DNA of 60,032 nt, the filler included, from Dugesia japonica (Eukaryota): the NCBI GenBank assembly GCA_001938525.1. It is 5 parts of 5 records of this genome, joined end to end, with 100 filler letters (N's around TTAATTAATTAA, not from the genome) between each part and the next. Parts side by side here need not be neighbours in the genome. Positions count along the whole stretch, not along the records: positions 25,610 to 39,875 come from MQRL01644319.1; 4 more parts are not named here. The stretch is one strand, 5' to 3'. The position numbers were made by a program, and so were the translations under genes. Positions 4,561-51,985 of this stretch are shown piece after piece; position 1 is the first letter of the stretch; each line of letters opens with the position of its first letter. The notes below the pieces were generated by a model that was given only the letters and a program-made list of their open reading frames with translations, searched no databases and was not told where the DNA came from.

Positions 4561-4726
4561 AAAATAATAAAAAATATTAAAATAAATTTAAAATCAAGTG
4601 GGTGTTCAGACTTTTATTAAAATAATACGTGTATTATTCAGTTTGGTATCAGATATTGGATAACAGAAATCCTACAACGATCTTTTACCAAAGTTGAATA
4701 TAGTGTGTTTCCATAGAATCGGTAAA

Positions 4727-7950: not shown

Positions 7951-9379
7951 ACCTCACTGTTTCAAGTTAAATCAAGTTCAGACCAAGCAAACAAAAACCT
8001 GCTAATTTGTTGGGTCCGTCCATATCGTCTTTAGCTTGCCCAATACAAAAACTAGATGAAAATTTGAAACTAAAATTAGGAAACGATTGCAAACTGCCCA
8101 TTGTTTATGTGAAATGAGTTTATCCTAGTACTACTAATGTTAGTTATTATTAATTACAAAGTTAAAGTATCACAAGATGTAACAAGCAAAATGAAGTTTC
8201 CTATTGGTAAATCTTAGCAATTTGTTGACAAAATCGAGAAATATACAATAATATTCTTTAAATCAGAAAATTGTCAAATGATTGGTTGCAAAATACCGCT
8301 AGAAATGAATAAATTACAGTATGATATTAAAGAAATACGTTAGCAATCATTAGCAATAAATAATCAATTTAGGATCGATTTGTATAAATTAGAAAAATAA
8401 CACAATGCTGGCTTGAACCAGAATTTTTTCCTGCAATACGACTTATTTTCAATTTTTTTTCAAGGTCATCAAATTATAGTAGAAACATTATATCGCGTCG
8501 AACTTTACGATCAAATGACAAACAAATTGGTTTAAAAAGTTATTAAACAAAGAAATAAAGAAATAAAAACTACTTATACATTAATGAAAATAAAAACAAT
8601 TTTAAAACGAATATTTATTTGATAAAATGTAATTAACATTCAATATAACCAAATATATCTATTGATTTTTCTAAAAGGTCCGTACCTTTAATTACCAGTA
8701 TTTTTTTCTTCTATCATTGATACTCTTTCTACTGTTTTTACATCAACTTTCATTTCAACATCCTGTTGAATATTTTCAAAGTTATTCATTATTTAAATAA
8801 TAAATTAATAAAAATATCTTACCTATAGATTCAACAAATGTTTCCTTCTTCTCTTCTTCTTTCAAATCTACAACATTTTGTTGATTTTCAATAGAATAAT
8901 TTTATATCAATATATTCAACCATATCATCTATAACTTTATCTAAATTCATTGTTAATAAAATGAAAAATGTTGATTTTGTTTATATTGACTATTGTTGCA
9001 ACTTCATTTTCTTTGTTTAACTTACATTCTTATTGCTAACCTACATTACTAATGCTCTTTGTATACTTGCATTCATGTTGCATTGTCTTTATTTAACTTG
9101 TATTCCAGTTGCACATGTATGAGTCAAAGTTTTTGTTGACTTGCATCTGTATTGCATTTTCTTTGTTTAAATTTCTTTATCGAAATATTTTTTAGCCCTA
9201 ATGAGGACTAATATACTATCAATCAATATTTGTGGTCCTAAAAAGGACGGGTACACGTTCACATATATAAACCTTTCTTCTTTTTCCTAATTATAAAGGT
9301 TTTTAATATTTTCTAAAATAAAATAAAGTCATACCTTGAGGTAGATTGGGTTGATCTCGGTTGAGGAAAAGTATTACAA

Positions 9380-11015: not shown

Positions 11016-11115
11016 NNNNNNNNNNNNNNNNNNNNNNNNNNNNNNNNNNNNNNNNNNNNTTAATTAATTAANNNNNNNNNNNNNNNNNNNNNNNNNNNNN
11101 NNNNNNNNNNNNNNN
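11016..11115. other. Artificial scaffold spacer (44N-TTAATTAATTAA-44N)
   Basis: Six-frame-stop 12-mer at 11060-11071, centred in exactly 100 bp. Confidence 0.95.
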
Positions 11116-15779: not shown

Positions 15780-17520
15780 ACTTCAAACAAATTGGTAGCT
15801 TCTAAATTCTTTGTCTTCTCTTTAAATGCTGTTGTCACTACTTTGGTCTTCTGACAAATTTCACAACTACGAACTANTTTCTGTATTTGGCTGCACAAAT
15901 TCTTTGCAATATATTTGTCTCTCATTTAGTTGCACACCTTTTCAACTCTTGCATGACATAATAATTTATGTATTTCTTCTATTGTTTCATGTAATTTGTC
16001 ATTTCATATTCTTGATCAAATTTGTTCCCTAAGAAATGTTTAACTGATTTTCATTTTCCTTTTCAATCATGTTTAGTATTCTCGTTTATTACTTTTATTC
16101 TTCCCTTTCTTGGCATCTTCATGTGACATTTGACATTGTACACATACCTCACATCTTGGTCTAAATAACATATATGCATTACTATGTTGAATTCCTTTTC
16201 TATATCCCAAAACCATGTTTAAACTGCTCAGATAATTAATACATGTTTGGAATTGCAATGTAATTGGTTTCTTCGTCGTCATCATGAAAGTTANNNNNNN
16301 NNNNNNNNNNNNNNNNNNNNNNNNNNNNNNNNNNNNNNNNNNNNNNNNNNNNNNNNNNNNNNNNNNNNNNNNNNNNNNNNNNNNNNNNNNNNNNNNNNNN
16401 NNNNNNNNNNNNNNNNNNNNNNNCCATAGGCAACAACTCTTTCTCTTCCTTCTTTATCTCTCTGTGACAATACTGCTCCAATCGTATCGAAACTGGCTTC
16501 TGTATCTAATATAAATTCTTTGTTTATGTTCGGAAAATACAATATTGGTGCAGATTTTTTCAAACCCTCAAAAGTTTCGTTAATTGCATATGTCCATTCT
16601 AATTTCTTGTTGCTTGGTCCGCTACACTGCTCTAATATCTTTGACTTTCTGCGTAGTTTTCTATAAACTTCCTATAATAATTACAAATTCACAAAAAACT
16701 TCGTAACTTCTTTCACACAGTTAAGTTTGCCAAATTTTCTTATTGCTTCTATTTTAGACGGATCAGTTCTAACACCATCCCGGATAATTATGTGTCCAAG
16801 AAACTTGATTTCGCTTTGAATAAACAGACACTTTTCTGGATTAATTCTTAGACAGCCTTCACTATTTCCACCAATACTTTTTCAATGAATTAATATTGTT
16901 GATCTTTATTGTTCTTAAATATCAGAATGTCATCAAGATAAACTATGGCTCCACTGATTNCGCCAACCACTTTTGTCATCATCTCCTGATAGCTTCTTCA
17001 ATTTTAGCTTCTAAATACATTGGTTGTCTGTGCGGTTTTACATTGATTGGTTTACGACTTGTGATCATTTTGTGTCTTGTCAGATGTGTGCATCCAACAT
17101 CCCATTTATCTGACATAAAAGCATCTTCTTTACTTCCAATTATTTTCAATAACCGTTGATCTTCTTTAATTTTTAAAATATTTAAGGCTCTTATCAAGCG
17201 CTTTCCTTTTTTAATTTGTCCTCCAAATTTCGTTTCAATATTAAAAATGTAATTTTCGACTTTTTCATCCGTTATTGATCTTTTGCATAAGCTGGTATCC
17301 AAAATTTCTCTGCATATCTATTCCTCCTATCAGATCTGGTGTCACTTCTTCAGCAACTAAGAAAGTAATTTCTTTGCAAACTTCATCAATAATCACTCCA
17401 GTTCTAACTGTCCCAACAATTTCAAGTGTACTATTATTTGCACAACTCAATCTTTCATCAGTCATTTCTAAATTTCTTTCTCATAATTTATTAAAATAAC
17501 TCAAACACATAACGTTAATT
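15780..17520 (-). mobile_element. Degenerate Gypsy pol (PR, deleted RT, RNase H, integrase N-terminus)
   Basis: PDLIGGID, PINVKPHRQP, FILDTEASFDTIGAVLSQ, CEICQKTK. Confidence 0.88.
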
Positions 17521-18090
17521 CAAGCCTGTGGATGACACAAAATGATCCTTCGTATGGTGATTGCAGGCTTGTTGGATTGGGTGCTCGGAGCCATACTTAA
17601 TCGCAATCGTTTAGAGCAGATGGAATGAAGATGGTTCTTTTTGTTACATTTAGTGGCTTTGGTTTCTCGAAACGTTGTATTGAAGCTTGAAAATTTTCTT
17701 TCGTAATAGCAATTTCCATGTCTGTGGTTGGAATGATGTCTCCAGGGAGGCGAGTTGATGAACCATAGACGAGTTGCTCTGGTGAGGCTTGTTGCCCTGT
17801 AGTTGTTGCATTTCTTAGTCCAAGCATGACTATAGGCAAGTCAATGGACCATCTCCGTTCTGCAGTTGTGTTATGTGTTCGAATAGCATTTTTTAGGGTT
17901 CGATGAAGTCTCTCAATTTTACCGTTACATTGTGGATGGTATGCTGTTGTGTTGCGGTGATCGATTCCGCATCTCTTGCACATTTCTTTGAAATGATTTG
18001 AAATAAATTGTCTCTCTTGATCAGAATTTATGATTTCTGTTGGGCCAAATCTATTGATCCACACTTTTTCGACCGCATCTACAATAGCTT
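17521..18090 (-). mobile_element. Integrase fragment of a different Gypsy family
   Basis: WINRFGPTEIINSDQERQF, TTAYHPQCNGKIERLHRTLK, LQSPYEG. Confidence 0.88.
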
Positions 18091-19249
18091 GAAATTAATA
18101 ATGAAATTAAAGTAAATTAATGAATTGGAATTAAAGAAAGAATAAATGAAAGCAAGGAAATGGATATTATCTATTTATATTATATCACTGTTATATTTAT
18201 AGAAGTATTATAAATATATTATTATAAATAATAATTATCAAATAAACAAAGTATATTAATATTATTAGATCACTAAACTCAGTACTGTAAAAAATTAGAA
18301 TTATAATTAAAACAAAAAGTGCAATTTTTATTATTATTGTAATAAATCAGAATAATATTATTTAAAGTTGATGTATTGTTATTATCTGAAAAATAAAAGT
18401 AATTGTTAAATCATTATTATTAATAGAAGCATTGAATATAAACATATAATTTTATTCTGAACCGTTAAAATAAATAAGTATGAATATTATTATGGCATAA
18501 AAGTGGAAAATAATAATAATTATTATTATTAATATTATTATTATTATTAGAAATTGGAATGAAATTGTAAATTATTATTTGTAATTATCTTTGTTTGGAT
18601 TAATTTATAATTAGGTATAAGTACCATTTGAAAATATTTATTATTTATAATTACTAAGGTCACTCTGGTGACATTTGAATTTAAAAACAAAAACGACTAA
18701 AAACGAGTAATTTTGAATTTGTAAAATCATCCAACTATCACTGAAAGTTATAGCTTAAAAGCATCAGCAATGATACGAACGAGTGAGCACATCTAATAGT
18801 ATGTATACAAAACCTTAATATTTAAAGATACAGAGGTTGATTTCTAAATAGAAACGGCAATTTTACAAAGCACTGGGTTATGTGAAAGGATTTCATACAC
18901 AGTAAAAACAAAAATTGTAACGGACCACGATTTCATAAAATATGGTTTGTAATAGTCAAAATTCAGTGAATTCAACTATAGAAGGATTGTACAGAAACAT
19001 CAAAAAAACTAAAATAATCTCTGAATTATATAACTGATTTCCATTGGATGATCATAGTGATCATAGTTCACCTAGAACCAAAACAATATAAAGGAAAATC
19101 ATAAAACTAACAAAGAAACCCTTCTTTTCATCATAAATTTATAATCATGAGAATCGAATTTTGAGAAATCACTATTGTGAGTGTGTTTTGAGAAGCGAGT
19201 TGAAATTGTTGTTTGATTGGTGATCATTTTTATAAAAATCTTTATTTCA

Positions 19250-21140
19250 AATCTGTATGATAACAGTATCTTCCGGAAGTGTAATTCCCAATGGAATACG
19301 CCATTAATCTGCGTTTGGAAAAAGTAAAAAAAAAGGATATACGATTATGCTTAGATTTTAGACACCTCAATGCAATAACAGAAAGACATTCTTTTCCTAT
19401 GCCAAATGTGGACGAAATGCTGGATGCTTTGGAAGGTACACAATATTTTTTCTCAATAAACTTGGAAAAGGCATACTATCAAGTAGAACTCAGTGAGAAC
19501 TTTCAAGAGAAGACAGCTTTCTCGACCAAAAAAGGGCAATTTTGTTTCAATGGAATGCCTTTTAGAATCACGACAGCACCAGGTACGTTCCAGAAAATGA
19601 TGAATAAAGTTAATAATAAAAATAAAATTAATAATAAAGGAGCGATGATTTATCTAAATGATATTCTTATATTTACCGAAACAAAGAAGCAACACTATGA
19701 AATATTCAATAAAGTATTGACATAAATTAAGAATGCTGGTCTAAAAGTTAATTTAGGAGAAATGTTATCCAACTAAAATAAAAGTAGTTAAGAACTTTGT
19801 TAAACCAAAATGCTTTAAGAAGATGAGAAACCTTTTGGAAATTTGCAATTACTATCGCTAGTTTATTAAAGATTATTTGAAAAAGACTAGATTACTGAAA
19901 CAACTTTCTAGTGGACAAAGTAACAAGAAGATTGAATGGGTGAACGAAATAGAAGAAGTTTTTATTGGAATGGAAGAAGCACTTATGATGTCTCTTATAT
20001 TATATTTTACAGATATAAATAGAAGATTTATTCTGGAAACAAATGCGAGCTCCAATACGATTTGGGTAGTACTATCTCAAAGGGACAACAATGGGTAAGG
20101 AAGAATAATTTTAAATGGGTCACACGCAATGACAAGTTATGAGAAAGGATATTCTACTGTGCGGAAAGAATTGATCGCAATTTACTACTTTTGTATTCAT
20201 TTCAAACATTATTTATATGGAAAAATATTTATCTTAAGAACATACTATAAAGCTATTACTTTTATGCTAAATACCAAGAGATCGATAACGTCACAGTTTC
20301 AAACCTGGATTAATTATTTGAGCAGTTTAGATATAAAATTGGAATATAGAAAAGGATCGCTTCATACAAACGCAAATATGTTGTCATGGAATAAATGGAG
20401 TAAACATTTGCACAATGTATAATGTCACATGAAGATCCCAAAAGTGGCAAATTAAAAACAATATGTTAAATACAGTAAATATTCTAGGGAAACAAGACAA
20501 TTTAGGTAAAAATGATGAAGGAACATGGATACCTGATGAAACAGTAGAAGAGGTTATAATGAGAATACACCATCTTTTGTGTCATTCTAAAGCGGAAAAG
20601 TTAACATCATATATGATGCATAATTATAACGCGAAACATTTGTGGAGTAAAGTACAACAAGTTGTGCAAAGTTGTATAACATGCCAGAAAGCTAAAGTAT
20701 TAACAACAAAAACGAAGGAAGAAACAAAAACGACACAGCCATCCGAATTGTTTGAACTGTAATTTATAGATGTGAATGGACCACTTCAGGAAACAAAAAG
20801 TCGAAAAAGATTTGTTCTCGGTATAATTGATCAATACAGTAAGTATATAGCCTTGATAAAATGACAAGACAAGATGAATATACCATAGGGAAAGCAATAT
20901 TGGAGAAGTAGAAATCAAAGTTCGGGCTGATGCATTGCCAGAGATAGAATTTACTTTGAATGCTACAAAAAAGAAGACCATCTGGAAAAGCTCGGAAAGA
21001 TAATAAGCAGAGGAAAATGATACAAAACAGATTCTCAAAGAGAGCACAAATCACAAGATAAAGATATATTGACCAAAAGAAAAAGGTTGGTTATGAGGTA
21101 TTAGTGAAATTAGAAACAAGAAACAAGAACCAAGATCGTT
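19250..21140 (+). mobile_element. Degenerate Gypsy pol (RT, RNase H, partial integrase)
   Basis: RLCLDFRHLN, AYYQVEL, KTAFST, YLNDILIF, HFKHYLYG, HHLLCH...CITCQK. Confidence 0.9.
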
Positions 21141-21219
21141 TAGATTGGAGCTATTTAATGTTAAATGAATTGATTGATTATACTCAAAACGAAAGATTTT
21201 AAAAATGATAAAAAATGAA

Positions 21220-22050
21220 TCGATTATATCTTTTTAAACAGAACAGAAAACAAATAAATCCTACCCTAAATTGCAAGACAGACCAAATGTTACAGTATCA
21301 ATTCAAGGAAATTAAGTTGGATATCTTTTAGATACAGTGGCTCGAATTAACGTTATGAGTTTGAGTTGTTTTATTTTACGAGAACTATATTTAGAAATGG
21401 TATTAGAATATAAAAAGGAATTCAACATGTTAATGTTATCTAGACAGATATGTATGGTATGTGTACAGTGTAAAGAAGCAATTGATCATTTCTGAAGAAA
21501 GAATCAAGATAACATAAATTTCAAATGCCAAAATAAGTGAAACATTTGAGGAAATATTCAAATTATTATGTCATACATGAGTTGAATATATGAGAGGCAA
21601 ATACATTGCAAAGAGTAGTAGAGCGAAATAGAAAAGATTGTTCGTAGCTGTGAAATTTGACAGATGATCCAAGTAGTGACGACAGCAACCAAAGGAAAGA
21701 CAAATAGATTAGAAGCGAGCAATTTGCATTCACAGGTATATGTTGTCCATTAGGGGAAACAAGTGGACGAAGAAAAACATTCTTGAAATAATATATCAGT
21801 TCAGAAAATATCTACTTCTAATAGCATGGCCTAAACAAAATGAAGAAACAATTGTTGAGAAGTGTATATTGAGATTTCGATGCTGAAGAGAGATAAGACT
21901 AGATTGTGAAACGGTATTTGAATCTGTAGTTATGTAAAATAAATTAGATGTTAAACTTGGCTTTTATAGTCCTTATCATCACAGTGCAAACGGATAAATT
22001 GAAATACAGTTTATGACAATTTGAGATTTAATTAACGCTATACTTCAGAA
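21220..22050 (+). mobile_element. Heavily deleted Gypsy PR/integrase scraps
   Basis: LLDTVARINVMS (~21325) and FYSPYHHSANG (~21962). Confidence 0.7.
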
Positions 22051-25509: not shown

Positions 25510-25609
25510 NNNNNNNNNNNNNNNNNNNNNNNNNNNNNNNNNNNNNNNNNNNNTTAATTAATTAANNNNNNNNNNNNNNNNNNNNNNNNNNNNNNNNNNN
25601 NNNNNNNNN
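25510..25609. other. Artificial scaffold spacer
   Basis: 44N-TTAATTAATTAA-44N. Confidence 0.95.
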
Positions 25610-26780
25610 TTTCCGACTTCCGTGGCCGACCTGGCCCTCTATGTTCCGTCGCAGTGGGCTCGGTGCTTGCGGCCGGTGTAGCTTCTTCTTTTATCGCTGC
25701 TTTTTTGCACAAGTTGGTGTGATATATTTTTGGTTTCTCCAACAGGTTTCCTTTCTTCCGCACTTTGAGATTTGTTTCCGTTACTTCGATTACTTCATAA
25801 GGTCCTTGCTATGGCCTTTTTAATTTCGATGTTGAACCGACACAAATGTCTGGTAAATTGATTAATACCATGTCGCCATTTTTAACGGAATGTTGCACTG
25901 CTGATTTATCGTGTAAATCTTTATAGCTCTCCTGGTAGAATCCTACATTCTCCTTGGCTTGTTTCATATTTTCTGCATGGTCTCCTTGAAATTTTCAGCA
26001 AAATCCGTTTCATCTTGATATTGTGTTATCGGTGGCTGGAATTCCAAGTCAATAGGCATGTTACATTCTCTCCCATACATAAGATCAAATGGCGTGTATT
26101 TGGTGGCAGGGTGCACACTCATTCGATATGCGAACAGGCATAGTTGAATATGTTTATCCCAGTTATTTTGTTCCTTCTGCGCGTAACTAGACAGCATGTT
26201 GATCAAGGTTTTATTGAACCTCTCTGTTAATCCATCCGTTTGAGGATGATAAAGTGATGTCCGTAACTGGTGTATTTTGAGGAAGTTCGATACTTCTGCT
26301 AATATATTGCTCATGAAATTTTTTCCTTGGTCGGTCAATATTTTCTTTGGTGTGCCATATCTGCTATTAAATTTTCGTACCAGAATATCGGCTATAGTTA
26401 TGGCCTTTTGATTTTTCATTGGAAATGTCTCTGGGAATTTAGATAAATAATCCATTATGGTAAGTATTTAAATATTTCCGCTTAGCGTTGGTGGTATAGG
26501 TCCAACAACATCCATAGCGATGATTTCCATTGGTGCGGCTGGTACCGCGATTGGTTTCAATAATGCTTTTACTCTTTTGCCTGTTCCTCTTCTGGCGTCA
26601 TATATTTGGCATTTAGCAATCCATTCCTTCATAGATTCTGTCATATGCGGCCAGTAATATTTCTGTCTTAATTTTGATTCGGTTTTCTTGTGGGACATAG
26701 GTCCTCCTAATACACCATTGTGATATTGTTCAAGTAGCTTATCCCGTCTTGCCTTAGGAATGACTAGCACAGTATTATCT
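25610..26780 (-). pseudogene. Integrase of the giant element, with C-terminal AT-hook-like GRPRK
   Basis: YHNGVLGG...KYYWPHM...CQ, IAMDVVGP, ILTDQGKNF, YHPQTDGLTERFNKTL, HRGPGRPRKS. Confidence 0.92.
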
Positions 26781-27049: not shown

Positions 27050-27880
27050 CATATTTTCCGGTCCACCGATTCTGGACAGGCAATCAACATTCGAGTTTGC
27101 TTTATCCGTTTTAAACTTTAACAGGGGGCAATACTCCTGCATTGCCAGTTGCCACTTGGCTATTCGATTCCATCGTAATGGTTTCTGGGCCATAAACGTG
27201 ATTGGTAAGTGGTCCGTATAGATTAACACCTCGTGACCATGTATAAGTGATCGAAAATGTTTAGTGGCTTTCACAATAGCCATTATCTCTCGTTCTGTTG
27301 TGCTGTAATTTAACTCTGCTCCTTGAAATCTTTTGCTAAAATATGCAATTACTCTTTCCCTTCCTTGTTCATCCAATTGGCTTAATATGGCACCCATGGT
27401 GTAACCACTAGCGTCAGTGGCTAAAATAAATGGCTTTTTGAAATCAGGATGTACCAGAATTGGTGCAGTTAGTAACTTATCTCNNNNNNNNNNNNNNNNN
27501 NNNNNNNNNNNNNNNNNNNNNNNNNNNNNNNNNCCCCATATAAATGCAGTATCTTGTTTGACCAATTCTTGCATGGGTTTTGCGATTTTTGCGAAATCTT
27601 TGATAAAATTTCGATAATAGTTTGCGAGTCTTTAAAACTCCAGTATCTTGAGTACACAATTAGGAGGTGCTAAGTTCCTGATTTTCTCCGTGTTTCTTGG
27701 GTCTGGCTCTTTTCCTTTATCTGATATCAAATGGCTCAAATATGTCACTCGCATTTGGTGGGTTTCAGTTTTAGATTCCATTTACGTAATCGTACAAACA
27801 CACTACGCAAGTCATTAAGGTGCCCTTCAAAGGTTGGCGAATAAATTAATAGATAGTCGATATAAGCCATACATTGAGAT
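27050..27880 (-). pseudogene. RT C-terminal half (N-terminal half deleted), connection and RNase H
   Basis: CMAYIDYLLIYS (degenerate YxDD), LKLKPTKC, ANYYRNFIKDFAKIA, FILATDASG, NYSTTEREIMAIV, IYTDHLP. Confidence 0.9.
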
Positions 27881-28289
27881 ATGCCGTGGGTTACGTAATT
27901 CATGATCTTTCACATGGGTATGCCTCTCTAATGATTGTAATCGTAACGTTGAAAAGTTTAATATACCGTTTTTCATCAGTACGCGAAAAATATATGTTCC
28001 TAGAATACACTGTCCCATCAGGTTTTGTTTTCCATGTTGGTTCTCGTTCTTGGAACCTTATCCAATCGTTCCTTATCAAGGTGGCTGTATTGGTCATTTT
28101 CTGACGGTCTTGATTTGAATTGTTTTGTTCATTTCGATCAGTTGGTCACTGTCGCAGCCGGTTGGGTGTTGGCGGATTCCATTGTTGTGCTCGTTTCTGT
28201 TGGGTTATTATTCGATTTTTCTGATATCCTACCGGTGTATACTCTTGATCATAGTTTTCTCNTATCGTTAGTTTTCTCAAATCCAATAT

Positions 28290-28580
28290 TCCCTCCGGAC
28301 AAAGGCGTGGCAAGAGGTCCAACCCCAATAGACAGTCGAATGTTAATTCGTTCATTATTTGTAGTTTATGCCAGAAACGGATTCCGTCGCTTTCTATCGC
28401 ACATATTGCTTCTCCAACGGGTGATACTTTTTCTCCAGAGGCTGTGATGATAACTCCTTTAGTTATAGTTATTGAAGTAGTCGATAATCTTCCAATATTC
28501 TCTTATCTACTAACGTCGTGCTTGCTCCTGTATCGATAATGGCTATTACCCATCTTACGTCTATATTTATCCTTTTTTGT
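28290..28580 (-). pseudogene. Retroviral-type aspartic protease
   Basis: IAIIDTGASTT, IITASGE and FDCLLGLDLL, across small frameshifts. Confidence 0.88.
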
Positions 28581-28762
28581 AGTAGTTTTGCCCTCTGAGA
28601 AATCATCATACATACGGTCTGGGTTACTAATTTTTCATCCTCCGTGATTTGGTTATTCGGAGAACGCAGATTTTGGTCAGGCATTCTTCTGTCAATAGTT
28701 GATACATTGTTCTCTGTTAATAATGCCACATTGGAAGCTTGTGGTGGATTTATATATGAATT

Positions 28763-31105
28763 TTACATGTGACCCGATGCCCATACCTGTTGTGGTGGTT
28801 GATTCATGAGTTGCCACCCATGTTGTGGGTAGGCGTTGAAGTAAATCTGTTCTAGTGCTGGTGTATTTTCACTTCCTCCGAATTTTAACGCGTTTCTCAG
28901 TCGTTGTATTTCACTGATTTTTTCGTATTGTTGTCTTTTGAACTCTGCCTCATATTCCATGGCAGTTTTATAACTGGGTACGTGGGGTGTTCTACTGCTA
29001 TCTCCTCTATCGTCATCACTGCTGTTACTACTTTCGTCTTTGTTCTTAAATCTTTCTTTAAATTGATTGAAATATGATATTTTCTTTTTCGCATTGCTTA
29101 TTTCTTCGCACAATAGTCGGAGTTGCATAATAACTTCCTTGTCTGATCCTCTGATTTTTCCGAGTTTCCGAATAAATCGTTTTACTCTGTCGATGTCTTT
29201 GAAGTGGCTATTAAGCACCATAGTTTTGGCTAGAAATGGAAATATTCCCGTTATCATTTTCCAATTCACCTTCTTCTCTCTTTTATATATGTCAAAATAT
29301 GCAAATAATTGAGTAATCACTATTCGTGTTACCGAAATTATCAGCATAACTCCCAACAATCCTGCCATTGCTTGTCCAAATATGATGAATCGTCCCCACA
29401 TCTTCCGCATGACGTTTTCTGTGGCTTTTTGAAAGTGGTCCGCTGATAATAGTGCGTCATAATTTACTCGACCATCTATGTTGGTCCCACTAGTTAACTG
29501 CACTATATTGGATAGGATTTGCATCCTTCGGACTGGAAACAGCATATATTCCCTGGCTTTCTCTAGGTCTTCCCTGCTGTAGATTCCTCCTTTGTTTACG
29601 TCAATTGGAGTGAATTGCATACCTCCATTTAACCGTAACATGGAGAATTTCCGTGGGTTCGATTCCTACTGTCATTCGTTGCGGAAATCGTATCCATGAA
29701 CCATCGGTCATTATGTATTGCGGTCCAAATACTTTGGAGCAATTTATGATATTTGGCTTATATCCCAATGGGGATATGATTCGAGTAATTGGTTGCACAT
29801 AACGTTTTTCGTTGTTGTGGATAATTTCTATTTCATTGTAGCAGTTTTTTGGATTAGACGAGAACTCAGCATCTATGGCTTTGCATTTGTATAGATACAT
29901 TACTTCTCCGACCACTCGACCGAATTGTCCTTTTTCCAACGGGAGTAGTGGAGTGACACTATCTGGGTTTGTAACTGCCATTGCTAACTTTGTCTTTAGT
30001 ATTTCTTTATTTAATGTGCAGTCATTTTGAATGAGATCGTGGTAAATTCGTCCCATGGTGTCCTGCATTCGATGGAATAAGTTGTCCATTTTATTATTGG
30101 CGTATAGATGCAATTTAATATCTTGTGACATTACTGCGGCTTGCGCTGTTTTTATTCGATGTTCTGATACGAATATTCCTTTATAGTTCGTTTTATACAC
30201 TATTTGACCACACTTTGACATCGAATTGCCTTTAATTAACCGGATGGTCTCATCCTGTTCCGAATACATTAGCACTGTAGGCGTTGTGTGCCATTGTTGA
30301 TCGTATGATCTTGGACCTGACCTTATCGTTTCCTTGAGATGATCTATCCTATCTTTTAGATTACCCTCCTTTGGGTCTTGATCAATAGGTGTTATAGCGC
30401 GGTGTCCTTGGTATTCATTGAACATTGCTTCCTTTAGGTGTGCTAACTTACAATCCTGGTGATCTACTTTGTTTGTCAATGTTGATGTACCTGTATTACA
30501 TGATCCATCTGCTGCTTTGCAATACGACCTTCCTTTCATAGTCAAATCTATGCCTCGTATTCCTTGAGTTCTACTGTATAGGTTTCGATTGCTACCGCAT
30601 ACTGCCAGACCTTTCCTCGTATAGTGTATGTACCATATTCNNNNNNNNNNNNNNNNNNNNNNNNNNNNNNNNNNNNNNNNNNNNNNNNGTCAATTACATG
30701 CCCTTTCTTGGCGATGACTTGAGTCCCATGTTTGATGGTGATCTTTCCTGTGGCAAATCTTTCATCACATTGTTGTCCAGTTAAATGAACGGGGTGTCTC
30801 ACTGTCCCTGGATCAATTATTGAAGTGTAGCCTTGATACCCACAATGAAATATAAATGTTTTTACCGTTACCGCACACTCGCGTACTTGGGCCTTATAGT
30901 AATCAGATTCTTGATATAAATGGTAGATGGAATTATTACGTAGTGAGATTTTCTCCGGGTTTGCATCGGGGCATTNNNNNNNNNNNNNNNNNNNNNNNNN
31001 NNNNNNNNNNNNNNNNNNNNNNNNNNNNNNNNNNNNNNNNNNNNNNNNNNNNNNNNCCATCATTAAGAATAACAAGAGTATTGTAGTGGTTAACGCTTGC
31101 CAAGA
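28763..31105 (-). pseudogene. Envelope glycoprotein, chuvirus-G-like (class III fusion) with signal, Cys-rich ectodomain, TM and tail
   Basis: Signal WQALTTTILLLFLMM. Ectodomain motifs LYQES...ECAV...FHCG, DCTLNKEILKTKLA, GRVVGEVMYLYKC, CYNEI, QPITRII, NCS...PQY, GIYSREDL...MLFP. TM GRFIIFGQAMAGLLGVMLIISV (~29398-29294). Frameshifts at ~30548 and ~29640. Confidence 0.8.
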
Positions 31106-31213: not shown

Positions 31214-31606
31214 TATGGCCTCAATAAACTTTTTCCACCCCCCATGCTGCTTTATTAACGGCACTATCTTCTTCTGCATTAGATCCACTATTGGTAATTT
31301 ACTGAGAATGAAGTTTTTTGACGGCTTGCTTCTAGCGATTGATAGATGCGTTTGATTAATCAGATGTGCTATAGATACTACTATTCTTCCCTTTGTTGGC
31401 TGATCTTGTAACAATTCATCCATTACACCTTCTAAATTATCTCTTGCACTATGACTAGTACCTTTAGTTGCAGGGAATTTCTTAATAGCTGCTTCTATTT
31501 CTTTGGCCAAAGGTCTGAGATTATCTGATAGTTGAAATTTCCCATTCCATATTTTTAATTCCAGATATAGCATTAGCAGTAACTGCCGTATTACTACTTC
31601 GGTTGG
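31214..31606 (-). pseudogene. Bcl-2-like domain within the polyprotein
   Basis: BH3-like LRPLAKEIE, BH1-like VMDELLQDQPTKGRIVVSI (ELLQDQPTKGRIV core at ~31417-31379) and BH2-like LIKQHGGWKKF (GGW at 31243-31235), in canonical order and spacing. Confidence 0.75.
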
Positions 31607-32328
31607 TATGTCATCATCTGTCGAATTTTCGTGGTATCTATCTTGTGATACCGTTGCTAATCGCTTAGTTTGATGAGTTATGGATGTGGCTAATCGTTTT
31701 TGTTTCAATGCTTCTTCCTCCTCTGGATTTCCCGGAGGTTTTGTTCTTGGTCGACCTCTATTACGAGGTTGCGTAATTGTTTCCGCATCCACTCGGGTAC
31801 GTACTGGTTTTGGCGGTACTTCTTCTTCTTCGGTTTCTATTGGATTTTCCATCTTTACGTGGTGGTTTGTATCCATTAGATCATCCATTACTGAGGATGG
31901 TAATTCTTTTGCTATTCTACTTAATATTGTTGATAATGGTTGGTCTTCCAATACGTCTTCCTCTTCCAAGTTAACCTTGCTAGGGTCGTATTTTTTACTT
32001 TGGGCTGGCTCTTTAACCTTTATTTCTTCACTTTTCCTAGTTGGAGGAGAATATTTTGTAATTTGCAACTCGTTTTCATCTTCCTCTGATTCGTCTGCTG
32101 ATGGTGATCCGAATATTTCGCGTTCCCATTCTTGGCTTGTTTTGGGAGTTTCCTTGGTTTCCCGGGAACTTCAGCGCTCCCAGATTGATCTGTGGTAGGT
32201 TTCAATATTTTACTAGCCGCTAATTGTGTGCGGTGTTTATATGCTTTTAGCATACTTGAGGTCTCTCCCATTATTGGTCTGGTTTTATCTGCTGCTTTAT
32301 AAGGATCTGCGTCTTTTCGAGTGAGAGT

Positions 32329-35300
32329 GCCTCCTAATTCGGGAAAAATCCCCAACGTTTTATGTTTAATTAAATCTATTTTCATTAGTCCAATTGGTAT
32401 GGTATCTTCCACTAGTCCACCTTCATCCACGAGTTTGTATGGTGGTTTAAATGGCTACTTGTCTCGTAGGTGTTTTACCGTATTATATACCGGTATTTTA
32501 ACCGTGATTTTGTCCCCTTCTGGATAGATTATTCTGAATTTAACTTCGAATGGCGTGGTTTGTCCCATCTCCGCTTTCCACCATTTAACCAGAATTTTAT
32601 TAAACTGAATGGGATCCCATGTATGAGATATTTTAATGGCCAAGATTAATCGTCGCAACTTTCTAAGATCTTCTACTGCCAGATCTTGTTGTAAGGCTAT
32701 ATTGATCGTTGTATGATTTCTAGCGTTATTAACTTATCACCTACTAGCAACTCGAACAATTTCGGTAAATTGTCTTCTGGTTTCTCGTCTTTGACCGGGG
32801 TGTTGGTTAGAGCTGCTACCATCTCTACTCGTTGTTTATTTTGCTCTTGTTTAGGGAGCTTGGCTCCGGCGAATACTAATGGGTGTATCTCTTCTATGTA
32901 ATATTCCACTACTTCTCTAGCTTCTTGTTTCCATATCTCCTCCGAGACCCGTGGTCGTCGTCTCTTCTCATCCTTTGCTGTTACGTAGATTTTTAATTTA
33001 TTACCTGGCCAAACCCTCATATATTTCACTGGTAATCTCATTTGATCTAGTTCTATTACCTGGTTGTAATAAAGTACTATATCATCTTCCTGCAATAATG
33101 GTTGCATTCTGGTTTCTTCTTCTTCAAGGTTACTCTGTTGGTTCATAAATTTTATAATCCTTTTCCGCAACTTAGACCATGGTTTGATCATTTAACCCTG
33201 CCACTGGATTTCGCTTTTATCCGGAAATTCGATTGTTACTGCAACGGCTTCATTGGTTATCATTCGAACTGCTTTATTTAATATTGCATCCATTATGTCT
33301 TCAGGCATTTGACTTATAGCTCGTAATTGATTTAGCTTTAGAACTAATTGAATGACTTTGNNNNNTCTTAATAGTTCCAAGTTTTCTTCCAAGGTTAAGA
33401 GTATTTTCATTATTACTCGCGCCAGACTTCCCCATGTTTTACTGTCTTCCCATAACTCAATATTTATCTCCATTGTTCTGTCATCGACTACTTCGAATAA
33501 CTGTCCACTGTTGATTTCTTGTTCGTATAGTTCCTCTAGTTGTTGTAATACTTCCCCCATAGATTTAACTGGGCCTGGAATGTAATCGCCTGGTTTTTGG
33601 ATTTGAAGAAATGTATTTTCACCAGGTCTTAGCCCTACGTCCATTAGATGTTGTTTTCCTTCAAATTTTATGGAGAATCTCAAATGGTCGGTCGTGATTG
33701 CATAATTTTTCTGTTGGTCAGCTATATCTAGTGATTCTATAATTTCCTGTAATTCCCCAGCTGATGTACTATTAAAATGTGGTATATGCATGACAGCCAT
33801 ATCCGGTTCCTTCCTTGATTTCTTGTTTCGTGTCAGATATTCTATTGTGACCTGAAAATTCTCTCCTTTGGCGCTTGTCTTCACTGCACCGATATACGGC
33901 TTGATTACTGATTCCCATTTAGCACGTTCTTCTCTTGCTATTTCAGTATACTTTGCCAGATCCATTAGTAAATTTAATGCCTTCCAAAATGCTGTCCGAG
34001 GTTTTCTTTCCTGGAAATAACAGAAATCAGAAATTATCTTCGATATCCACTCTGCCTGCTGGGAACTGAAAGGACCAGCGAATTCCTGTTTAAATGGTAT
34101 CAACCGAGGTTGGCTAATATCCTCTGAGCATCCTTCCTCCTGGTCCTCTTCATCGGAGGTTAGGTCCATGGTGTCATGGTCATTACCCCGAACCATGTTT
34201 ATCTGGGCTTTGTTTTCGCCATAAGTGTTTATAAGTCGTTCATTCTCTACCGGTAGTATTTCTTGTAGATATAGGCTCATCATAATTAATATGAATTGAT
34301 CGGTATCCGGCGTTTTTGGTATCGGTATGTCGATGGTCATTTTACGTGATGTTAATTTAATGTCTGTGATCTCCCCTGGTTTGATATCATGTAGAAAGAT
34401 GTGGTCCCCTTTCTCGGCTTATATAATCATTGTTGCTCCTGCCTGCATTTTATAGGACTTGAGCGATTTTGGCCATAGCCATTTCTTGATTGTTTTTATA
34501 ATATGGTTGATCGTTAATCCTTCCAGCGTTATCATATCTACCTTTTTTATGCTTCTATCTTTATTAAGGAGGCTGACTCTGATAGAATAGTCGGATATGG
34601 TAGATGTATTTTGCACTTCCTCTTCGTATAAGTTTTTCTCTTTCCACCATTGTGCTCGAGCCCACAAGCTGAGTTGTCCATATATTGCCAAATCCCGTAG
34701 ATTATTAATCATTTTCCAATATACTTTGATATTCACGATTGGTCGAGTTTCTCGGGTTACTCTTAGTAGATCATTGATAGCGTGAAACGTGGCGGATTCC
34801 TCCGTTATTGGTTTCGTATAATTCATTCGAATATCACGTATTGTTGGTGTGCCTTCTGGGAATACGACGGATTTTGTAGTAATTATTGGCAAGTTATCGA
34901 TATTCTGTATTTTCTGATTCTCTTTTACTTGTTCCTTTATGCCATACAATACTTCGGATACGTACAATTCTGTTATCTCTTCCATTCGCTCCTCGAGATC
35001 TGGTGATTGATCCGTCCGCGGCTCCTCGTCTACATCTAACTCACATATTTATCCAGGCTTTGCGTTGCATTGAAATATGTGTTTGTCCTCGTCGTCGGTC
35101 TCAACGAATTTGCCATTTATGAACACAGGTACCATGTTTAGTCCTTGTTCTCGCCACTTATCGGTAATGGCATCCATTAAATCCATCATGGTTATTCCTT
35201 GTGGTTTTAATCTACTATATTTAGTCAGTTCCTGTTCATGTTTATCTATATTTAAATATAATTTATAATCCCGAATTTTGGTAGTTGCCAATATTTCTTC

Positions 35301-36130
35301 GGCGTACTTCTGTCTAATCATGAGCCACTGGTTCTCGATTTCCTCGATAATTTCTAATCCATCATATATGTCGTAAATTCTATTCATTATCATCCAATAG
35401 GTTTCTCGAGGTAATTTTTCCTTCTCTATCTGTACTCAGTTAACTATTTCTTCCACTTTACGCATTGCTACCACCTCTCTTGATGGCATTTGCCGCATTC
35501 TTATCATGTTGCATTTGCCTTCTCTTCTCTCTAATCTTTGTTTGAGAAAATCATAACGCGTCATCAACAACTGTTTTCTCTCCTCCATTGTTAGTTTGTC
35601 TTTCTTCCCAAGTACTGTGGAAAGTATTTCGATTTTAATCGGTTCTAACCCTTGTTTATATAGGTACTCCATTTCTTCCATGATTTCTAAAGCTGATCTT
35701 CCGGTTTTTGCTATCCAGATGTCGTAGTCGATACCAGGGTGTTTGTCCAATACTACGATTTCAATGTCCTCTCCTGTTTTTACTCCAAAATCATATAGAT
35801 GTTTCTTTCTGGCGTTAAAATATACAATAGCACTTGGAGTGCATACATATTTATCGGTTATGCATGGATAACCGGCTTGCTTAAGCGCGGCTTCCAGATC
35901 TTCTACCATTAATCATGTGAGTGTCAGTTTCATATTTCCCTCCGGGTTATACAGCCATACTTAGTAATCCGATAATCTCATGCTGGATATTACCCACTCG
36001 GAATGCACTAGTAACCATTCTGTCCAATCGCTTTCGCACTCGGTGATTAGTTGTATCACTTCCAATAATTCAACCAATCGATTTGTCAACTTTAGGTATA
36101 CTTCTTTCTTTATCGTATCATTAGTAGACG
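32329..36130 (-). repeat. Six diverged protein repeats (~190-250 aa each): helical domain + ubiquitin-like fold
   Basis: Recurring LYxxEI, (Y/F)WxxxNxLxD...W and DYxV motifs. Unit ends are HLYDFGVKTGEDIEI, HIFQCNAKPG*ICEL, HIFLHDIKPGEITDI, HLMDVGLRPGENTFL, VKYMRVWPGNKLKI and EDTIPIGLM...FPELGG. Confidence 0.65.
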
Positions 36131-36149: not shown

Positions 36150-39100
36150 AGAGTTTTCTCGATTAGCAGTGGAGTTTTTGATCCGAAGATTAATAGATTA
36201 TATGATAGGGCTGGTGATATTGAGAGTATTTGAGCAGCTTATTATCTTTTTGCAGAAGTTAAATGACAGCGAATCGTATTTTCTGATATNNNNNNNNNNN
36301 NNNNNNNNNNNNNNNNNNNNNNNNNNNNNNNNNNNNNNNNNNNNNNNNNCTTTAATCATTTTGGTATTTTTAATATGATTTAAGAAGTCCTTGTGATTTG
36401 AGATAAGAACTGAGCCAAGAGGGATATCTTAGTCAGTAATATGGTTGAGAAAGATATTAGCCTGATGTGTGAGAATTTTCCCATTGTAAGATGATTTTTG
36501 AATATTACCAGGAGTAAAACCGATTTACAGGCTGAAGAGAAAGTAGTGGAAGTAGCTACTATTATTCCGGATAGCACATTTGCTATAGAATTTATGGAAT
36601 TAGAGCAGTTACAAGACGCTCAATCTATTATAAATAAATTAGGAAACGAGATCTTTTCAGTTCCCAGATGGGATGTAAACATTAAAAGCATATTGAGTTG
36701 GATGTTGACATTACATACTTCAACTGAAGTTCTAAAAGAGGTAATACCATTAATATTACTGTTGGTTGATAAACCAAGCAGTTATCAAAATGAAATTAGA
36801 ATTTTAATTAGAAAAGATAGGGAAGCCATGAGGCATGATCCTGTCAGACAGGCCCATTTTATTGTTGACACAAGAGTACCCAGTGAGGTGGTACCAAAAA
36901 TAAAGAGATATTCGTGTTTCACAAATGTGTTAAAACTGAAAGCGGGTATCGGAATAACATACCCACAAACGTGTTTGATAGTAATTTGGGGTAATCAAGT
37001 TGATGATCATGTAATCATGTTGGATGTTTACAAACTAAAACTACGCTAGTCAATGTGTTGATAGTAGAGCCATCTGATCACCATTGGACTATGTTGCGCT
37101 TGCCGGAAGTATCCGAGGTTGCACAGAATCAAGAAGCATCAATAGTGTAAGAGACGGAAATGTATATAACTCGACAAAATCAAGAAATGCCAGTGGATTT
37201 GGATGAGCCAGAACCGGTCAATTTACTGAATATACCACAAAAAATATTCTCTGAGAAAGCAAGTGATACCTGAAATGTACAAGGCAACAATCTGGGAGCA
37301 TGCACCTCCAGAGAATTAGAAAAGAGAAGACAACCAAGAGTTAAAAAGAGAGGTAGACCGAAAAAGAATACTAATTCTTAGCCGGTGGACATAAATCCGA
37401 GCCAGGGCATTAAAAGCCATATTTGGTGAAATATATCAAGGGAATATAGGGAATGAACCAGCAATGTCAGATACATGCTGTAAAATTCTGCAATTAATCA
37501 GAGTATTAAAACCCGAGTTAAAAATTGAAAAAGTTGGACGTTGGGATCCAAGCAAATTAGCCTTGTCACTAAAGACAGTTATTAGAAAGTAACTAAGGAA
37601 GTTGCCTGATAAAAATAAAAGGAACACAATTCATACGTTACCTGCTCAAGGTATTACAAATGGGTGAGTTTGTTTTCAGAGCAAACTGGCTGGGATATTC
37701 ACATATCCACAAGCTTATTCGCGTATCGTAACAAAGCACATTCAATTACATGTTATTTACCGTTTTATTTGATGGATCTGAGAAATAGCAACATGCCGGT
37801 GGATCTTGAATTTCAAACACCATTATCGCAGTACCTTGATGAGAGCAAGTATCTGCTCGAATTGAAAGATAGGATGCAAATAACTTGGCCAAAAGCTAAC
37901 TTAAGTATTAGATATTCGCAAAAAGGAATGAAAGAGGCATTTGATAAAAAGACTAAACAGCACGAATATAAAATGCAAGATTTAGTAATGCTCGAAGGGC
38001 ATAATAATACAAAAGGTTTGTCACTGAAATTGATACGAAATTATAAGGGACCTTATGAGGTACTAAAAACGACAGAAACTAATTTAGGCTTACAATTGTG
38101 TTCTAACAGAAAAACGGAACCTATACTAGTACATGTAAATAGGTGCAAAAGGTATTATACAATTGATGAGCAAGTTAAAAACAAAGAGACAAAAGTCAAG
38201 GAAAAGACAAAAAGGTCTTCAACAAACATTCAAGAATCTTGCAATAGATATCCACTAAGATCACAAACGTATTCGCAAACATTGATAATTATTGCAATAA
38301 TCAGTTGTCTTAATGTGGTCAGTGCGCAGATAGAATTTCAACCCAAAGCAGTACCTATGGAGAAAATAATATTACGTAGATGGTATTACAAATTCTCTAT
38401 AAGGACAACGGTCGAATTGACATTTAATTACCACATAGGGTTTATTTCCGATGGAANAGTGACAAATTACAAGAAAGAACACAGGAATAGAGAGGTTAAT
38501 ATAACTAATTTAAAGGCTAACTATACCCATTCTATGCAGTGTTGGTATCAGTAATTCAAATCCGTATATTGGGAGACTGTACGAACCACCGGATGGTATC
38601 TTACGACTTTGCCAATAAACAAAGTAGTAATATCGTACAAAAAATCATGTCTATTTTTCACGAAAGTACATACAGAGNNNNNNNNNNNNNNNNNNNNNNN
38701 NNNNNNNNNNNNNNNNNNNNNNNNNNNNNNNNNNNNNNNNNNNNNNNNTATCGGGAGAGGGTTTTTTGGACTCAACTCTGATATAAAAATTAGATATTAT
38801 CGACAGCAAGAGGGATCAACAGCCACATATATGGTATGCTCAGAAAAAAACTTAGTAAAAAACCAATTTCCAGAAAATTAAATGCAAATTTCTGGAATAG
38901 AATTAAAATATATCAGATAAATGTTAGCTTGGAAAAGGCAGCACTTAAAATTGCCTTAGCACAGTGTAATTGTTCTACTTCGACTCCGTTAAATAACAAG
39001 GCTAACAGCAAGATGCAAAAACGTATCCAGATGATAGTAGGTGGACCCTGAACAAAGGAATGCAGTACCATCGTACATTTGCTCTATCTTCCAAAGTTTA

Positions 39101-39700
39101 TGCAGACATTGAATCCGGCGATCCTTTTGTAATTTCGCACCGATACGGAACAAATGTTGCTCTTGACCCATTGGCTATGGATTCAATTATAGAAGAAGGT
39201 CCTAGCCTTAGAACGGAAGACCTGTCTAAAGTGGACACTTTAAGTAAATCTAGAGATCCAAATCTTTGGCAAAAACAAGTTGCCAAGTTTAAATGACCAA
39301 TTCAATATTACTGTGATCGTCCGGTCCAACACACAGCTATTACGGAATCCCACCTCGATAAAAATCGTTTGGAAGTCAGTGGACAACCATTTATCAATTC
39401 GCCATCTGTGTATGTGTACGAACATACAGAAGTCCCTTTCGTTGTAACTCCCAGATTTACCAAGCGAAAGAAAAAATTAGTAAAGGAAATTCTTAATAAA
39501 GTAGAAGAAAATTCAAAAAGGAAGAAATTAATTCCTTGTGTATCCAAACAGAATAAAGAAACTGAAAAGAACGAAGAAGGAATTTCCTAGAAGAAGTCTC
39601 AATCAAAGAAGAAGAAGATCCTCAAGTGAGCACTAGTCCGTCGAGGCTATGATCCGCTCTACTCAACATCTCGAACACTAGCATGTAATGATATGAACCG
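36150..39700 (+). mobile_element. Second, diverged giant Gypsy-type element with a large internal deletion: Ubl-like, AT-hook, start of Bcl-2-like region // integrase C-terminus, signal-peptide ORF
   Basis: KRGRPKK at 37346-37366. ILQLIRVLKPELKI...LRKLP resembles IRQLLLMLYLELKI...IKKFP of the minus element. WDIHISTSLFAYR...NMPVDLEFQ resembles WDKHIQLCLFAYR...NMPIDLEFQ. Also GPY and VHVNRCK. Confidence 0.75.
37664..38554 (+). pseudogene. Integrase C-terminus fused in frame to a signal-peptide-led unknown protein
   Basis: YKGPYEV and VHVNRCKRYY, then RYPLRS-QTYSQ-TLIIIAIISCLNVVSA-QIEF. Confidence 0.7.
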
Positions 39701-39875
39701 TTCGAGCAATATTCGANAACAATCAATAAACAATTAATCTGATTTTTTTTGTGATCCAATTGCAGTTTATATGTATATATTTGACATTTTTAATTGTGTG
39801 CTATGTGATTTGAACTATTAATCATCATTAGTGTTTTGTACAAATAATATATTTTACTATTCATCGCTTATTTTT

Positions 39876-39975
39876 NNNNNNNNNNNNNNNNNNNNNNNNN
39901 NNNNNNNNNNNNNNNNNNNTTAATTAATTAANNNNNNNNNNNNNNNNNNNNNNNNNNNNNNNNNNNNNNNNNNNN
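39876..39975. other. Artificial scaffold spacer
   Basis: 44N-TTAATTAATTAA-44N. Confidence 0.95.
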
Positions 39976-48278: not shown

Positions 48279-48378
48279 NNNNNNNNNNNNNNNNNNNNNN
48301 NNNNNNNNNNNNNNNNNNNNNNTTAATTAATTAANNNNNNNNNNNNNNNNNNNNNNNNNNNNNNNNNNNNNNNNNNNN
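48279..48378. other. Artificial scaffold spacer
   Basis: 44N-TTAATTAATTAA-44N. Confidence 0.95.
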
Positions 48379-50106: not shown

Positions 50107-50459
50107 TTTGCAATACACACATACTTGCATGTATTTTTATACAACCACTAATATATCACACATTCAACTTACGATTTTCGGTTTTTGGCAATTGCGGTTG
50201 ATTAACTGCAAAGTCTGGAGCCAATATAAAATTGAAAAACGTATACGAATCTTTATATTTCTACATGGTAATACCATTATTTCGATCTACATTTGACAGA
50301 CTCATGTTCCGAATAATTGATTGCACATATGCCTGAGTAAATTTGGTATCAAAGTCAGTAGTATATATTGACTTTACACTCAAATTTGAAAATGTCGAGC
50401 CAAAGTAGATAATCACCAATTGCTTGTTTCAATAATTAGAAAACAATCCAAATATACTT

Positions 50460-51985
50460 CAATAGTCATTTATGCGAAAAGAGATTGTCTTTATAATCTT
50501 CATGCGAGGTTTTTAGAATTGTAAAATGTACGATATTTGTTTTTTAGAACAATACAATCAAGACTGACTGATCAACAAGAACTTGTCGCTATACTAGTTT
50601 TGTTTCTTTAGGATTCAACTCAACTTTTTCTTTAGCATCTTAAGTATATTTGTAAATTATTGATCCTATATTTCTATTCAATTTGATTATCGCTTTGATT
50701 CCGAACAACAAATATTTTTGTTCCTCAAAGAAATCCAAATGAAGAGCACTGCAAAGCGTCAACTTTGCAGACGTTTTAACCAAATATTTTTACTTGTTAT
50801 CTTCTTTTTGATAGCCTATAACAATGTTAAATGAGTTAAGAAAACCCACCTGATCATTAATACGGGAACTCGAATTCATTACAAAATTTGATCAAACAAA
50901 AACTACGCTTAACACTATTTGTTTATTCAAACAAATTTAAATCCTGAAATTTCATTGACAATCATTTTTATATATTTTTAAGTCGAGATTTTTATTTATT
51001 TAAAATTAGTTTGCTTTAATTTAATTAAAACATTTTATTTATTTATTTAAAATTTTATTCAGGTTAAAAGTTTTATTTATAATAAAAATTAACTTCTTTT
51101 TAAATCGTTATTTTGAAATTTAAAATTGAAACTTTTATTTATTTAATTAGCCAAATTTGCGTTTAGTCAAAATAATTTAATTTATCATTAAACCAAATAT
51201 GTGTTATTTTAATTTTTCAAAAATCATTTAAATCTCTCTTTTAAACAAAAGATTTTAAAAATATGATCACCAATCACACAAAAAATTCAAATTGCTTTTC
51301 AAAAGGCACTCACATCCCCCTTTTTAAGAAAATTTTTTATCTTCTCTACATTTCTTTCAAGACTTTTTCCGTTTGTATCTTCCAGGATGTAACGCCTGTC
51401 ATGAACTTTCCTCTTGATCTTATAAGGTCTTTCATAACGATATTGGTTTTGTTTATTGTTTCAACTTTCACTAAGACTTCATCACCGACCTTGAATTGTC
51501 TTTTGGTTATTATTTCTTTCCCTTGTTCTTTGTGCACTCTGAGTATTTTTTTGTACAATTTTTTTCTGCTAATTTCGTTCCCAAATACAATTTTAACAGG
51601 GCTTTTTCCAATGGATTTTTGTTTTGTAGCATTTAAGGTACATTCTATTTCTGACAATGCATTTACTCAATCTGAGGTTTTTTTCTTGAAGTGTTACATT
51701 TATCATATCCCGCATAGTTCTAAACAGTTTCTCTATTTGTCCATTTGTGTTATGCTGATTTGAACCCGAAAACCTGAGGGTAATTCCATGTTCAGCTGCA
51801 AAATATTTCATTGAGTTAGACTCAAATGCTCTTCCACAATCAACTGAAATTTTTTTCGGACACCCGAACTTTAATACCCAATTCTTCATTATTGCTTTTC
51901 GTATAGTATATTCATATTATCTTCTTATTGCTATTAAGGCAATAAATACTTACTGTATTGATCTATTATACCAAGTACATATCTT
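50460..51985 (-). mobile_element. Gypsy integrase end + PPT + LTR (LTR starts at 51314 going leftward)
   Basis: KNWVLKFGCPKKISVDCG; AAAAAGGGGGA-TGTGAG at 51314. 50460-50750 is the reverse complement of 55547-55845. Confidence 0.88.

Follow-up and report, generated by a model that had tools for sequence, protein, structure and literature searches.

The window, a 60,032-nucleotide stretch of Dugesia japonica DNA (GCA_001938525.1), carries a retroelement on its minus strand between about 25611 and 36000. This block is strand-biased and has a higher GC content than its surroundings, which are AT-rich eukaryotic sequence, rich in retroelement fragments and N-runs. The domain order in the element, taken from the Pfam order within the window plus profiles, is Ubl–Bcl-2–Env–PR–RT–RH–IN. 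The locus is very probably a defunct copy, with an internal deletion, of a Ty3/Gypsy element that is present in many copies and likely belongs to the Burro/GYPSM1 type. In intact relatives of this element, a single polyprotein comprises Gag, accessory domains, a class III fusogen and Pol. The TAA codon between Env and protease is likely a nonsense mutation. The features, all on the minus strand, are as follows:

32697..35912 (-): ORF A, an upstream region of 1072 codons, one frame across four internal stops, without a Gag motif
32305..32700 (-): a short helical region, then a ubiquitin-like domain (~32550-32340); one internal stop
31220..31609 (-): Bcl-2-like domain with BH1-like and BH2-like motifs (Pfam, profile against PDB, relatives)
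30976..31102 (-): internal hydrophobic signal sequence of Env, running into an N-run (sequence and relatives; predicted cleavage)
29372..30973 (-): ectodomain of a class III (gB/chuvirus-type) fusion glycoprotein, spread over three frames (PF24664, model, Foldseek)
29315..29371 (-): predicted transmembrane (TM) helix (hydropathy peak)
28580..29314 (-): Env TM-to-protease tail/linker, Pro/Gln-rich and poorly conserved, holding the TAA at 28765-28763
28266..28580 (-): aspartic protease with its DTG at 28534 and a frameshift near 28473-28502 that divides it
27131..27903 (-): RT, lacking its N-terminal half and with a degenerate catalytic motif in the C-terminal half, then RNase H
25611..26761 (-): integrase comprising HHCC, core and C-terminal region, interrupted by two stops and one frameshift; the contig ends at an N-run

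The host element had been proposed from the sequence to be of Gypsy type, and the pol domains bear this out. The PR-RT-RH-IN order, a Gypsy-type RNase H and an HHCC integrase are present, a class assignment based on Pfam profiles (RVT_1, E 2.7e-6; RT_RNaseH, E 9.5e-36; Integrase_H2C2, E 1e-13; rve, E 3e-8) and in agreement with the Pol of five relatives, to which the window Pol is 39-43% identical over about 600 aa. The protease aligns to P0001 by tblastn (E 5e-4) and matches RVP_2 weakly (E 0.16) in its C-terminal half only. It changes frame ~15 codons after the DTG, and family contigs show an indel at 28473-28475. About 180 codons are missing ahead of the RT motif; the DTG-to-YxDD spacing is 224 codons here versus 402-434 in 7 of 7 relatives, and family contigs diverge from the window sequence at 27903.

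At the other end of the element, ORF A is likely the accessory middle of the polyprotein. It has no credible match in Pfam, PDB sequences, PHROGs, a homolog search or the proteins gathered in the analysis; the homolog search among proteins of 30-588 aa gave 0 of 3296 candidates. The element appears to lack its 5' part. Neither Gag nor flanking LTRs were seen in the window, and Gag/CCHC is present in relatives. No 3' LTR is visible and there is no repeat within the contig, which ends inside the integrase tail.

A second element of the same broad clade, also internally deleted, lies head-to-head with the first at 36350-39800 (+). It contains a helical and Ubl region (36678-37028), a C-terminal part of integrase (37676-38266; 34-50% to relatives) and a signal-like hydrophobic stretch near 38270-38320. 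Further decayed Gypsy-type fragments are found at 2393-5271, 16000-22000, 50400-55900 and 7676-8002, the last an RT fragment; the Gypsy-type fragments include inverted pairs and two copies that are ~80-88% identical (19.2-20.7 kb and 53.4-55.0 kb). A PCIF1/CAPAM-like methyltransferase fragment at 796-1251 (+) (Pfam E 5e-19; PDB E 5e-7), whose nearest atlas cluster is about half viral, is either a host exon or mobile-element cargo. Paired 44-base N-runs flanking a 12-base gap (TTAATTAATTAA spacer where read) occur at 25510-25609, 39876-39975, 11016-11115 and 48279-48378. These are apparent assembly joins, and the flanks may be non-adjacent in the genome.

The envelope glycoprotein and its relatives

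The sequence-only reading described a chuvirus-like fusion glycoprotein with a TM, placed ahead of the protease in the same frame. Its existence and its position ahead of the protease were confirmed. All the motifs named in that reading were found on the minus strand (FHCG at 30850, GEVMYLYKC at 29909, CYNEI at 29843, PITRII at 29792 and GIYSREDL at 29587), and so were those leading from the tail to the protease (WASGHM at 28783, the TAA at 28765-28763, NSYINPP.. at 28762 and IIDTGAST at 28540). The C-terminal piece of Env has one Kyte-Doolittle peak (2.24), at 29371-29315, which corresponds to the claimed TM; a weaker second hydrophobic stretch follows it in the sequence. The claim of a common frame held for the TM, the tail and the protease motif, which share a frame across the single TAA, but not for the whole glycoprotein: Env is frameshifted near 30548 and 29666, and the GEVMYLYKC/CYNEI/PITRII block sits in a different frame. 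Two N-runs (30641-30688 and 30976-31056) mask the signal cleavage site and some of the ectodomain. In relatives, a hydrophobic stretch precedes a YDC motif at the Env signal position.

Identification as a class III fusogen was borne out by both profile and structure. PF24664 (Monjiviricetes_fusion) matches three collinear Env pieces beyond chance (E 2.5e-11, 2.1e-35 and 7.6e-20), and matches relatives with full-length Env at E 1e-77 to 4e-97. The unbroken 345-aa middle piece was modelled with an 82-sequence alignment (pLDDT 81.5, pTM 0.53); the model, which covers these 345 aa only, has a gB-like fold with a long central helix (176-223). Foldseek against a viral library gave 29 matches at E<=0.001, the best at E 3.7e-12 with chu-like glycoproteins, and the list is headed by glycoproteins of chu-like, mivirus, xinmovirus and rhabdo-like origin with an identity of about 15-22% (about 15-26% for the top viral rows). 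Against the PDB, Foldseek gave the middle piece no match at E<=0.001; among the matches listed, 34 of 35 are herpes gB and one is a thogotovirus GP, the top gB having an E of 6e-3. The six top rows in VIA are also gB (Z 7.2, rmsd 8.2 and 262 aligned for the best of them; Z 3.6 for the highest row that is not gB), as is the best PDB match of an Env sequence profile (E 0.017). The model resembles herpes gB weakly. An ectodomain matching no viral fusogen, which would have refuted the sequence-only reading, was not what the searches found.

Independent capture of a chuvirus glycoprotein by a Gypsy-type element, also proposed from the sequence, did not hold up as a recent event. A quick tree of 78 rows, made without bootstrap and subject to a long-branch caveat (4 of 82 rows with <200 aa covered were dropped, and P0019, a non-Env piece, is included on a long branch), places the window Env in a 9-row clade with an SH-aLRT of 100 and a stem of 2.43 changes per site. 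Six of the nine rows carry a protease in the same ORF. The window Env is 29-43% identical to such fused Envs versus 16-24% to stand-alone glycoproteins. Since it groups with the protease-fused Envs on a long stem, it is not a recent private capture from a chuvirus. The best named structural matches, chu-like and other negative-strand RNA virus glycoproteins, are what a recent capture by this element could produce, but the identity to the top viral rows is low, the Env is nested far from stand-alone glycoproteins, and PMC13524379 argues for an ancient env-pol association. Such a capture is extremely unlikely.

Bcl-2-like and ubiquitin-like domains

The Bcl-2-like and ubiquitin-like domains upstream of Env, missed by the sequence-only reading, identify the family. 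The Bcl-2-like domain (about 31609-31220) is in frame with the N-terminus of Env and lies directly before the signal peptide. The piece alone matches Pfam Bcl-2 at E 6.7e-4, which is below the curated cut-off, and BCL-XL at E about 1.2, with atlas leads at 0.85. A five-sequence profile (A1) compared with the PDB matches BCL-XL at E 1.3e-4, and 59 of the 60 matches listed belong to the Bcl-2 family. Among the HMMER-found relatives, P0023, P0024, P0040 and P0119 have the domain at the equivalent place, and P0032 weakly so; in four relatives it lies 53-82 residues ahead of the Env start motif. A homolog search with the piece among proteins of 376-2000 aa gave 0 of 1278 candidates, and its single-sequence fold (pLDDT 45) found no meaningful match in a fold search. 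Canonical BH3 binding is not assured because the BH1 NWGR motif is degenerate; among the five sequences, the Gly-Arg pair is kept in the window copy only.

The Ubl region matches P0038 by tblastn (E 1e-6), and a six-sequence profile (A3) matches ubiquitin/ISG15 chains, with single-domain E values of about 5e-4 to 2e-2. Support for this predicted ubiquitin-like domain upstream of the Bcl-2-like domain is moderate, since the window piece alone has no match in Pfam or the PDB and is missed by a relatives-only HMM. The helical region before the Ubl was guessed by eye to be TFIIS-N-like; profile and PDB searches gave no support to this identity.

Single-ORF relatives and the TAA codon

In intact relatives, the Env-before-Pol position claimed from the broken window copy is seen within one ORF. 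P0001 and P0002, intact single ORFs of 3771 and 3761 aa from clusters of 21 and 7 members, consist of a Gag-like N-terminus, Ubl, Env, proteases, RT, RH and IN in that order. In P0040, Gag-CCHC-Ubl-Bcl2-signal-Env are in one ORF. The Gag-Env-Pol ORF is broken in the window copy and continuous in relatives, among which no intact copy of this very family was seen. Env is followed by protease in one ORF in 11 of 18 long matches scanned; the remaining 7 extend no further than the TM region. When 153 proteins were tested with the pre-TM piece of Env, 130 matched. Sixteen of the best 25 of these 130 run from Env into a protease without a stop, 105-367 aa after the TM, in databases of predicted ORFs that favour open frames. 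The other nine end within 107 aa of the TM, and none of the 25 extends more than 107 aa past the TM without a protease; the ranks below are mostly stand-alone glycoproteins or fragments. The TM-to-protease distance is ~260 aa here, by coordinates, versus the 105-367 aa of the relatives.

Several relatives are more elaborate. Three, three, three, four and seven aspartic-protease-like domains per polyprotein, some of them after the integrase, are present in P0001, P0023, P0025, P0026 and P0173, respectively. Multiple protease-like domains were not seen in the window copy. P0001, P0025, P0028, P0037 and P0173 have a long post-integrase extension with two or more hydrophobic segments, which suggests a second membrane protein; that of P0001 looks fibronectin-III-like by eye only. 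P0028, a clear Env-PR-RT-RH-IN polyprotein, is labelled in NCBI as a protein of a Flavobacteriaceae MAG and is likely animal DNA in the MAG bin.

The window copy is heavily decayed. Eleven stops were found in the 3310 codons scanned, nine of them in-frame, while two only close a frame that follows a shift. TAA accounts for six of the nine, two of these six lying inside Pol, and three of the nine are in RT/IN regions alignable to relatives. The element has about seven frameshifts, including two inside Env and one inside the protease. In three sequencing runs, 8564, 5700 and 5721 contig pieces match the family, the largest class being 90-95% alike. The summed contig depth in run X1, which is not equal to copy number, is 78/44 at 28762-3 versus 1908 at 28729 and 45332 at 28809; runs X2 and X3 dip likewise, so that the depth at the stop is one to three orders of magnitude below that at positions 35-45 bases away. 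Contigs in all three runs skip 28729-28854, bridging 28728 to 28855 with unlike sequence. The stop site is poorly conserved, because contig depth collapses there and contigs bridge the region with unlike sequence. In one oligo-dT run, of which about 25% was read, 38 reads match, none at >=99% and 31 fitting partly, too few to judge expression.

As an alternative to mutation, it had been suggested that the stop is subject to programmed readthrough, by which the family would set its Env:Pol ratio. The TAA does lie in the tail-protease linker, and gammaretroviral readthrough stops sit in the corresponding linker. A 1:1 Gag:Pol ratio is unusual and some control might be expected; three relatives (P0043, P0047 and P0049) end 67-77 aa past the TM, at contig ends or real stops, and one contig each in X1 and X2 spans the stop site without gaps. 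Set against these points are the frequency of TAA among the in-frame stops, with two inside Pol, the poor conservation of the site in the contigs of X1, X2 and X3, and P0029, which is 50% identical around the TM and open into the protease. The sequence downstream of the TAA forms no stable RNA structure (z 0.33; 118 of 200 shuffles fold equally well). UAA is the least leaky stop codon; a literature search on this point found nothing. Because the copy is heavily decayed, the site poorly conserved and downstream RNA structure lacking, decay is much likelier than programmed readthrough, which must be regarded as improbable in this family. The TAA is likely an ordinary nonsense mutation, not a control switch.

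Proposed topology and comparison with known systems

A model for the intact relatives can be proposed from simple hydropathy. The ribosome would make Gag-(Ubl)-(Bcl-2) in the cytosol. The internal signal sequence would then thread the Env ectodomain into the ER lumen, where signal peptidase would cut. The single TM would stop transfer, leaving the tail-PR-RT-RH-IN portion cytosolic and tethered to the membrane until the element's protease frees Pol; the hydropathy agrees with a Pol that stays cytosolic behind a single TM. The tethering of Pol through the Env tail, proposed in the sequence-only reading, fits this model. Gag, Env and Pol would be made at 1:1:1 and assemble at the membrane into enveloped particles able to fuse with adjacent cells. 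The role of the putative Bcl-2-like and Ubl domains would probably be to act on host cell death or on protein turnover.

Host Bcl-2 proteins carry a tail anchor where the Env signal peptide lies here. In HCV, the core protein is anchored by the E1 signal peptide (PMC5402940), and the placement of the Env signal peptide after the Bcl-2-like domain is similar. It is possible, and put forward tentatively, that where a Gag-Env-Pol element bears a Bcl-2-like domain, the signal peptide of Env also serves this domain as its tail anchor. The polyprotein would be threaded in a flavivirus/HCV-like manner, and signal peptidase would leave a membrane-anchored Gag-Ubl-Bcl-2 that blocks host cell death, with the Env-tethered Pol waiting on the same membrane. 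Such a module would not be a planarian oddity but would recur in several divergent lineages, some of them with as many as seven protease-like domains and, beyond the integrase, another membrane protein. Searches of freely readable text on Bcl-2 in such elements and on their topology yielded PMC6431247 and PMC13524379 as the relevant papers, and the tail-anchor idea did not appear in the passages covered.

As found, the locus is a dead copy of an already published element type and in itself matters little. The interest lies in the working of single-ORF Gag-Env-Pol retroelements, with their likely 1:1:1 output, membrane-threaded topology and carried apoptosis-regulator-like domain. An alignment from the five Bcl-2-bearing relatives makes the anchor and BH3-binding questions testable. 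If the proposal is true, envelope biogenesis in a retrotransposon would be coupled to an anti-death function of the kind known from viruses.

In BEL/Pao elements, env sits downstream of the integrase. Mosquito BEL/Pao elements with a Chuviridae-like glycoprotein (Dezordi 2020, cited in PMC13524379) share the broad glycoprotein class with the window element. The window element does not fit a BEL/Pao element with a chuvirus glycoprotein: its Env precedes the protease and its Pol matches Gypsy-type Pfam profiles. Certain non-canonical ERVs of nematodes reportedly have a continuous gag-env-pro-pol ORF, and we know of no report of a Bcl-2 domain in them. These ERVs have, as summarised in PMC13524379 (citing Sacco et al. 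2022), a flipped Env/Pol order and an RNA-virus-like glycoprotein, both shared with the window element.

The env-before-pol arrangement is not new. For Burro, whose Env matches mononegavirus fusion glycoproteins, a 2019 account already places env in frame between gag and pol (PMC6431247), and similar elements have been surveyed across phyla. The survey (PMC13524379) reports GAG-ENV-POL 'errantiviruses' with an HSV/gB-type Env in Nematoda, Bryozoa and Platyhelminthes, and regards them as ancient and non-monophyletic; only intact copies were kept, and its main text does not contain the words 'Bcl', 'Burro' or 'polyprotein'. The window element could have the same layout and still represent another Gag-Env-Pol lineage, hosted outside the flatworms and no more than a distant relative of Burro. 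The non-monophyly of such elements would allow this, the Bcl-2-bearing relatives derive from ENA assemblies, and the upstream region is unmatched. MATH, BIR, ankyrin, AIR1, Smc and dUTPase-like domains, which are among the accessory domains detected in Burro by HHpred (PMC6431247), gave no match in the window copy in single-sequence searches, the PR-RT interval being partly deleted; ankyrin is present in the relative P0173. The order Ubl-BCL2-Env-PR is, however, exactly that of Burro, decayed planarian Burro fragments with stops and frameshifts are known from the same source, and an AT-rich genome holding so many copies is in keeping with Burro. A separate lineage is on balance unlikely.

Burro/GYPSM1 remains the closest known system. 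These giant planarian Ty3/Gypsy elements are of very high copy and have an ORF of 4873-5140 aa encoding Gag, MATH, Ubl, BCL2, Env, PR, dUTPase, RT, RH and IN (PMC6431247, which cites Grohme 2018 and Jurka 2007). BURRO1 RNA rises upon PIWI knockdown (PMC8532177). The window copy differs in lacking Gag, LTRs and part of the RT and in having the 1072-codon upstream region. It shares with Burro/GYPSM1 the Ubl and BCL2-like domains, a mononegavirus-like Env placed between the BCL2-like domain and the protease, the PR-RT-RH-IN order, the high copy number and the occurrence of decayed copies. Because its layout equals the published Burro/GYPSM1 order, the element likely belongs to this family.
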